Under the pieces are notes generated by a model. It searched no databases and had not been told where the DNA came from. It was given only the letters and a program-made list of their open reading frames with translations. A stretch of 311 nucleotides of DNA, from the NCBI RefSeq assembly GCF_003334355.1, contig NZ_QOWP01000116.1; one strand, 5' to 3'. The translations under genes were made by a program, and so were the position numbers. Below are positions 1 through 311 of the stretch, in pieces; position 1 is the stretch's first letter, and each line of letters starts with the position of its first letter. The DNA is from Escherichia coli (GTDB lineage Bacteria; Pseudomonadota; Gammaproteobacteria; Enterobacterales; Enterobacteriaceae).

Positions 1-165
1 GCGCGATTTAGCCCCGACGTATCCCCACTGTTCGTCCATTTCCGCGCAGACGATGACGTCACTGCCCGGCTGTATGCGCGAGGTTACCGACTGCGGCCTG
101 AGTTTTTTAAGTGACGTAAAATCGTGTTGAGGCCAATGCCCATAATGCGGGCGGTTGCCCGGCAT
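1..165 (-). CDS. insB: IS1 insB / insB' frame (catalytic part of the InsAB' transposase), first 55 codons; 3'-partial, continues beyond position 1
   Basis: Manual minus-strand translation in the -1 frame relative to insA gives [55 protein letters not shown]..., closely matching the InsB N-terminus as I recall it. The frame is open from an upstream in-frame TGA at 187..189, and the first ATG is at 163..165, which is the conventional annotated insB start. Established knowledge: the functional transposase is the InsAB' fusion made by frameshifting, not independent initiation at this ATG. Overlaps insA across 84..165. Confidence 0.85.
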
Positions 166-311
166 CCAACGCCATTCATGGCCATATCAATGATTTTCTG
201 GTGCGTACCGGGTTGAGAAGCGGTGTAAGTGAACTGCAGTTGCCATGTTTTACGGCAGTGAGAGCAGAGATAGCGCTGATGTCCGGCAGTGCTTTTGCCG
301 TTACGCACCAC
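84..311 (-). CDS. insA: IS1 InsA (transposition inhibitor / transcriptional repressor), C-terminal 75 codons plus TAA stop; 5'-partial, N-terminus lies beyond position 311
   Basis: The six-frame track ORF translates to ...[74 protein letters not shown], which matches IS1 InsA residues ~17-91 as I recall them. The second cysteine pair of the N-terminal zinc-finger-like motif (C-x2-C) is encoded at 255..266, and the C-terminal half carries the helix-turn-helix region. The track's initial M is an artefact: 309..311 is an internal GTG (Val) codon. Stop codon TAA is at 84..86 (plus-strand tta). Confidence 0.92.
102..108 (-). other. Programmed -1 ribosomal frameshift slippery heptamer A-AAA-AAC (A6C) joining insA to insB'
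   Basis: Plus-strand gtttttt at 102..108 is AAAAAAC on the minus strand, in the insA frame as TTA-AAA-AAC (108..110, 105..107, 102..104). Slipping back one base gives AAA-AAA-CTC and continues into the InsB-like frame (..LKKLRPQSV..). The insA TAA stop lies 16 nt downstream of the heptamer, at 84..86. Confidence 0.82.

Follow-up and report, generated by a model that had tools for sequence, protein, structure and literature searches.

The 311-nt stretch of Escherichia coli DNA analysed here (the window) is a segment of the insertion sequence IS1 that carries the A6C frameshift control described in the IS1 literature, a reading to which we assign a probability of about 0.95. Sequence comparison confirmed that the window is an inner piece of the element, IS1 nt 104-414 on the minus strand, holding most of insA, the insA/insB' overlap and the beginning of the DDE catalytic region. 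Members of the IS1 family are recognized by an insA gene with a zinc ribbon and HTH, a DDE ORF in the -1 frame and an A6C motif in the overlap of the two, and further by a length of ~768 bp, imperfect terminal inverted repeats of ~23 bp and a target-site duplication of 8-9 bp. In the window we found the insA DNA-binding ORF, the -1 DDE ORF and A6C in the A_AAA_AAC register. The A6C site reported here is already known: it is a textbook feature of a very common element, present in more than 90% of E. coli genomes.

A megablast search with the window returned 9,391 IS1-matching records. They come from 4,965 of the 5,426 complete E. coli genomes, and the median number of copies per genome is 10. 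Matches were also returned from at least 5,000 plasmids, of Escherichia, Klebsiella, Enterobacter, Salmonella, Citrobacter, Shigella and others. RefSeq labels the matches "IS1-like element IS1A family transposase" and "programmed frameshift". The widespread IS1 variant is one base apart from the window (99.7% identity; window position 137), while IS1A of E. coli K-12 differs at five of the 311 positions (98.4%), none of them between A6C and the insA stop. Set against IS1 of the IS1A / IS1R type, which occurs in E. coli and on enterobacterial plasmids, the window is alike in frame layout, in the position of A6C, in the insA stop and in the 82-nt overlap; its recoding region is identical, and the difference is one rare base change (137, InsA V75I). 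Identity of 100% over all 311 nt was seen in a single record among the 9,391, the chromosome of E. coli PSS-12.

The reading frames are laid out in Table 1. The -1 frame has a TGA at 189..187 and is then open to the window end, which puts seven extra open codons before the annotated insB' ATG (165..163, minus strand). The first-pass annotation had described an 82-bp overlap of the two genes; this stands when counted from the annotated ATG, as for insA1/insB1 of E. coli MG1655, whereas the stretch that is really open in both frames at once is 103 nt long (84..186). It had also placed the heptamer at 102..108 and the insA stop at 84..86, and both placements hold on the minus strand. Translation of both frames bore out its view that the signal is intact, with the heptamer uninterrupted and the frames open in register. 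AAAAAAC occurs only once in the window (108..102, minus strand), and 15 nt, or five codons (TCA GGC CGC AGT CGG), separate it from the insA stop. The frames open at the slip site are 0 and -1 only. A TAA at 109..107 (minus strand), overlapping the 5' edge of the A run (T-TAA-AAA-AC), shuts the third frame. Of the features of a programmed -1 frameshift site, it has a slippery motif permitting -1 re-pairing of the tRNA and a -1 frame open past the 0-frame stop. As a bare string the heptamer is at chance level, being present in 17 of 200 shuffles, with 0.09 expected per window. What lifts it above chance is the place and register in which it lies, its constancy among IS1 copies and the fact that the window itself is identical to annotated IS1 elements.

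Table 1. Features of the 311-nt window; positions are those of the window, and IS1 positions are given where available.
Feature	Position	Strand	Basis or remark
insB' frame, -1 to insA, leaves window at position 1	1..186	minus	Translation; start of DDE domain
Possible irregular 18-bp RNA hairpin, predicted	44..97	minus	RNAalifold consensus, nine copies; unsupported
insA stop TAA, five codons past slip site	84..86	minus	Same in all copies compared
insA/insB' overlap as annotated, 82 nt	84..165	minus	Equals insA1/insB1 overlap in E. coli MG1655
insA, 5' end beyond window edge	84..311	minus	InsA residues 17-91 and TAA; translation, Pfam, NCBIfam
A6C slip site AAAAAAC	102..108	minus	IS1 nt 307-313; split A_AAA_AAC in insA register
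Single-base difference from widespread variant	137 (IS1 nt 278)	minus	A for G

Elsewhere in the window, a scan of all 311 nt for promoters and terminators found neither, and a search for internal repeats returned short pairs at chance level only. One inverted repeat of 13 nt lies within insA (199-211 / 298-310; 92% complementary, with 86 nt between the arms) and may be due to chance. Opposite the IS1 genes, the plus strand has two ORFs (53..130 and 124..216, of 25 and 30 aa) that come without supporting evidence and are probably by-products of coding-strand composition.

The proteins encoded in the two frames were examined with profile models. When the frames are joined by a -1 shift, the product of the window matches, in order, the Pfam models Zn_ribbon_InsA (model positions 16-35 of 35, the model start falling outside the window), HTH_Tnp_IS1 (E 7.9e-29) and the start of DDE_Tnp_IS1 (model positions 1-19 only, at the window end, E 4.4e-06). 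The NCBIfam equivalog for the IS1 family transposase, NF033558, has a cutoff of 100 bits; the fused product scored 115.9 bits, with a match unbroken across the junction, while InsA by itself reached 81.9 bits and the full fused product of the identical copy in PSS-12 reached 244.9 bits. A second NCBIfam model, NF050000, was also matched above its cutoff. Because the profile match is continuous over the junction, it directly supports the view that the two frames are meant to be fused close to this point. The exact InsA protein of the window (91 aa, V75I) is found on ~200 public contigs. For the fused protein of the window variant, an exact look-up in the protein collection returned neither junction form. 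The fused protein of the common variant is recorded in public databases with a Leu-Lys-Lys-Leu junction on 255 contigs and with Leu-Lys-Asn-Leu on one, and the Leu-Lys-Lys-Leu junction fits a single slip of tRNA-Lys.

To this we can add the comparison of the window with eight IS1 copies besides the one in PSS-12, which are 86-99.7% identical over this stretch and include IS1A and IS1B of K-12, an IS1F and an IS1 beside NDM-1. A6C was found at IS1 nt 307 in all nine copies compared. The block TTAAAAAACTCAGGCCGCAGTC, comprising the slip site and the next 13 nt, is invariant down to 86% identity, with substitutions on either side of it; such invariance is partly expected, since the region codes in two frames. 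The most divergent copy examined (86%), from plasmid pCFSAN126949_01 (L004), has the 16S rRNA methyltransferase gene rmtC on one side and blaNDM-1 on the other. The last residue of its InsA is Gln instead of Arg, and A6C and the insA stop are kept. Another copy, on a plasmid of E. coli ET665 (L006, 653-1149), adjoins IS110 and IS5 fragments; its A6C is intact, its 3' end is missing after nt ~550 and it is annotated as a pseudogene, a dead element retaining the recoding signal. This copy keeps the site and yet is cut off, so that an intact recoding site is no guarantee of an intact element.

The anatomy of the site, the IS1 identity, the conservation and the profile continuity come from the present analysis, while the shift itself, its rate and its effect on transposition come from the literature. 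Taken together, they suggest the following scheme for the window. Most ribosomes on insA would halt at the TAA (86..84) and release InsA, the repressor and inhibitor that binds the IS1 ends. In ~1-2% of passes, the peptidyl-tRNA-Lys on the AAA at 106..104 would slip one base back on the A run (108..103), and reading would then go on in the insB' frame to give InsAB'. This product would be the transposase, with the DNA-binding domains of InsA joined to the DDE catalytic domain. Transposition would be held rare by repression through InsA and by how seldom the ribosome slips. We infer that the copy in the window acts like the IS1 of the literature, and the window has nothing in it that speaks against this scheme.

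The published evidence for this mechanism is clear in its main points, and for consensus IS1 the making of the frameshift product was demonstrated by experiment. InsB' is not translated alone, and production of InsAB' needs a -1 frameshift at A6C, which affects <2% of transcripts (PMC12428005, PMC12903888); reporter fusions at chromosomal IS1 put the shift at ~1.6% of transcripts (PMC12428005, PMC12903888). When A6C was swapped for the in-frame GAAGAAAC, transposase rose ~735-fold and transposition ~900-fold, and InsA supplied in trans undid the rise (PMC12428005, PMC12903888). The statement in the first-pass annotation that a rare -1 frameshift sets the balance of InsAB' transposase and InsA inhibitor, and with it the transposition rate, agrees with these two reports. 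In E. coli A_AAA_AAC works at low efficiency, and IS1 is given as the example of an element that keeps its transposase scarce by using a weak motif (PMC4066793). According to PMC1851650, which cites Sekine and Ohtsubo (1992), the IS1 event is not a tandem slip: a single peptidyl-tRNA-Lys moves from AAA to the AAA that overlaps it, at a rate of 0.3-1%.

The IS1 arrangement has close counterparts. Elements of the IS3 family (IS911, IS3, IS150) likewise fuse a DNA-binding ORF to a DDE ORF by a -1 shift at an A-rich motif, and there too the amount of transposase is set by how often the shift occurs (PMC5009743, PMC4066793). The IS3 family differs in using mostly the efficient A_AAA_AAG or A_AAA_AAA where IS1 has the weak A_AAA_AAC, and in having defined stimulators, namely a Shine-Dalgarno-like sequence before the site and a hairpin or pseudoknot after it. 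In the E. coli dnaX gene the shift reaches ~50%, is driven by strong flanking stimulators and yields the shorter product, whereas in IS1 it is ~1-2% and yields a longer fusion protein. The dnaX gamma/tau site (A_AAA_AAG) and IS1 are alike in that tRNA-Lys slips by -1 on a run of A (PMC1851650). The single-tRNA slip reported for IS1 in the same paper sets it apart from the IS3 family, as does the window, where we found no supported stimulator.

The search for such a stimulator covered both sides of the slip site. The hairpin predicted in Table 1 begins 4 nt past the slip site and has the insA stop inside it, and one of its pairs, 88/52, varies as GC/GU/AU among IS1 copies. Covariation in the hairpin showed no excess over the shuffle control (295/500), in a set of very similar copies that holds only five distinct sequences. 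The stability of the fold over the 62 and 101 nt after the slip site was equal to that of shuffled sequence (z 0.08 and 0.32). An Rfam search of the window reached no family threshold; the one weak match was on the other strand (E 1.8), far below cutoff. Upstream of the slip site, no Shine-Dalgarno-like sequence is visible. Sekine and Ohtsubo reportedly found in 1992 that the second to fourth adenines are essential, that downstream structures are not, and that the insA stop codon modulates efficiency. Stimulators are not obligatory at low-efficiency sites (PMC4066793), and the "pseudoknot" at this site that appears in recent papers is speculation only. With no supported stimulator and no Shine-Dalgarno-like sequence, low efficiency is therefore expected rather than demonstrated. 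It is conceivable, if improbable, that the hairpin (97..44) is a real conserved modulator of the frameshift, perhaps one that responds to conditions, or else that V75I alters repression by InsA or end binding by InsAB' and with it the activity of this IS1 lineage.

The base change at 137 leads to V75I in InsA and InsAB', within the HTH domain, and to R10H in the insB' frame, in a stretch that is not translated in that frame. The exact 311 nt occur in one of 9,391 records and the V75I form of InsA occurs on ~200 contigs; V75I must therefore be present on more than one IS1 background. The one identical copy (L001), on the E. coli PSS-12 chromosome, is a complete 768-bp IS1 with a 91-aa insA, an insB' open for 167 aa and terminal inverted repeats GGTGATGCTGCCAACTTACTGAT and ATCAATAAGTTGGAGTCATTACC placed 768 bp apart, and it need not be the source of the window. 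Its flanks (2889-2897 / 3666-3674) showed no 9-bp target duplication, reading cacaaaacg on the left against gccagtaac on the right. This copy abuts a tetratricopeptide-repeat gene that is without its N-terminus. Together, the unduplicated flanks and the shortened gene suggest that IS1 caused a deletion beside it or that two IS1 copies recombined.

Two rival readings do without ribosomal frameshifting. If RNA polymerase were to slip in the A6 run and add an A, the resulting A7 mRNA would be read in frame, with no ribosomal shift at all. Such a transcript gives the same Leu-Lys-Lys-Leu junction, and the annotated product therefore cannot separate the two routes. For efficient slippage, E. coli RNA polymerase requires longer runs, of ~9 or more. 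Homopolymeric A runs are known slippage sites (Baranov et al. 2005, as cited in PMC4066793), but the literature credits the IS1 event to the ribosome, and at another A6 tract, expressed in E. coli, RT-PCR detected A6 mRNA only while the -1 product was still made (PMC1851650). We consider transcriptional slippage here to be very improbable. The older two-gene annotation would have insB' translated independently from the ATG at 165..163, the A run being incidental. This ATG does begin the annotated 167-aa ORF, and MG1655 still has insB1 as a separate CDS. However, no Shine-Dalgarno-like sequence precedes it (the upstream sequence is aatggcgttgg), the product would be the DDE part alone without the DNA-binding domains, RefSeq now annotates the joined product, and InsB protein went undetected in a study that deemed insB' non-coding alone (PMC12903888). 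Independent translation is thus contradicted by the missing ribosome-binding site and by the failure to detect InsB, and is almost certainly wrong.

Even with frameshifting at A6C as the route to InsAB', the site could be intact and the source copy inert, through truncation, loss of an inverted repeat or disabling substitutions, with A6C left as a relic. The window shows 311 of the 768 nt and carries V75I in the HTH domain, and the truncated pseudogene of the ET665 plasmid, one of the nine copies compared, has an intact A6C. In K-12, IS1B, C, D and F retain A6C and barely transpose, and non-consensus copies with only nine mismatches are nearly inactive (PMC12428005). On the other hand, the sole exact match in complete E. 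coli genomes is the full 768-bp element of PSS-12, in which both inverted repeats are present and insB' is open, and the spread of V75I InsA over ~200 contigs speaks against inertness as well. Residue 81 of InsA in the window is L, and not the L81F suspected of impairing the non-consensus copies (PMC12428005). An inert source copy is unlikely in our view. The caution in the first-pass annotation that 311 bases cannot tell whether the source copy is active is upheld.

For annotation, the lesson is that this region should be described as one joined "programmed frameshift" transposase gene, and not as two genes or a pseudogene. The intact A6C in the window says only that the control point was not lost in the source copy, and it leaves what is known of the mechanism unchanged. 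That control point matters since A6C is the main brake on IS1, an element that in enterobacteria causes insertional mutations and deletions and mobilizes resistance genes.
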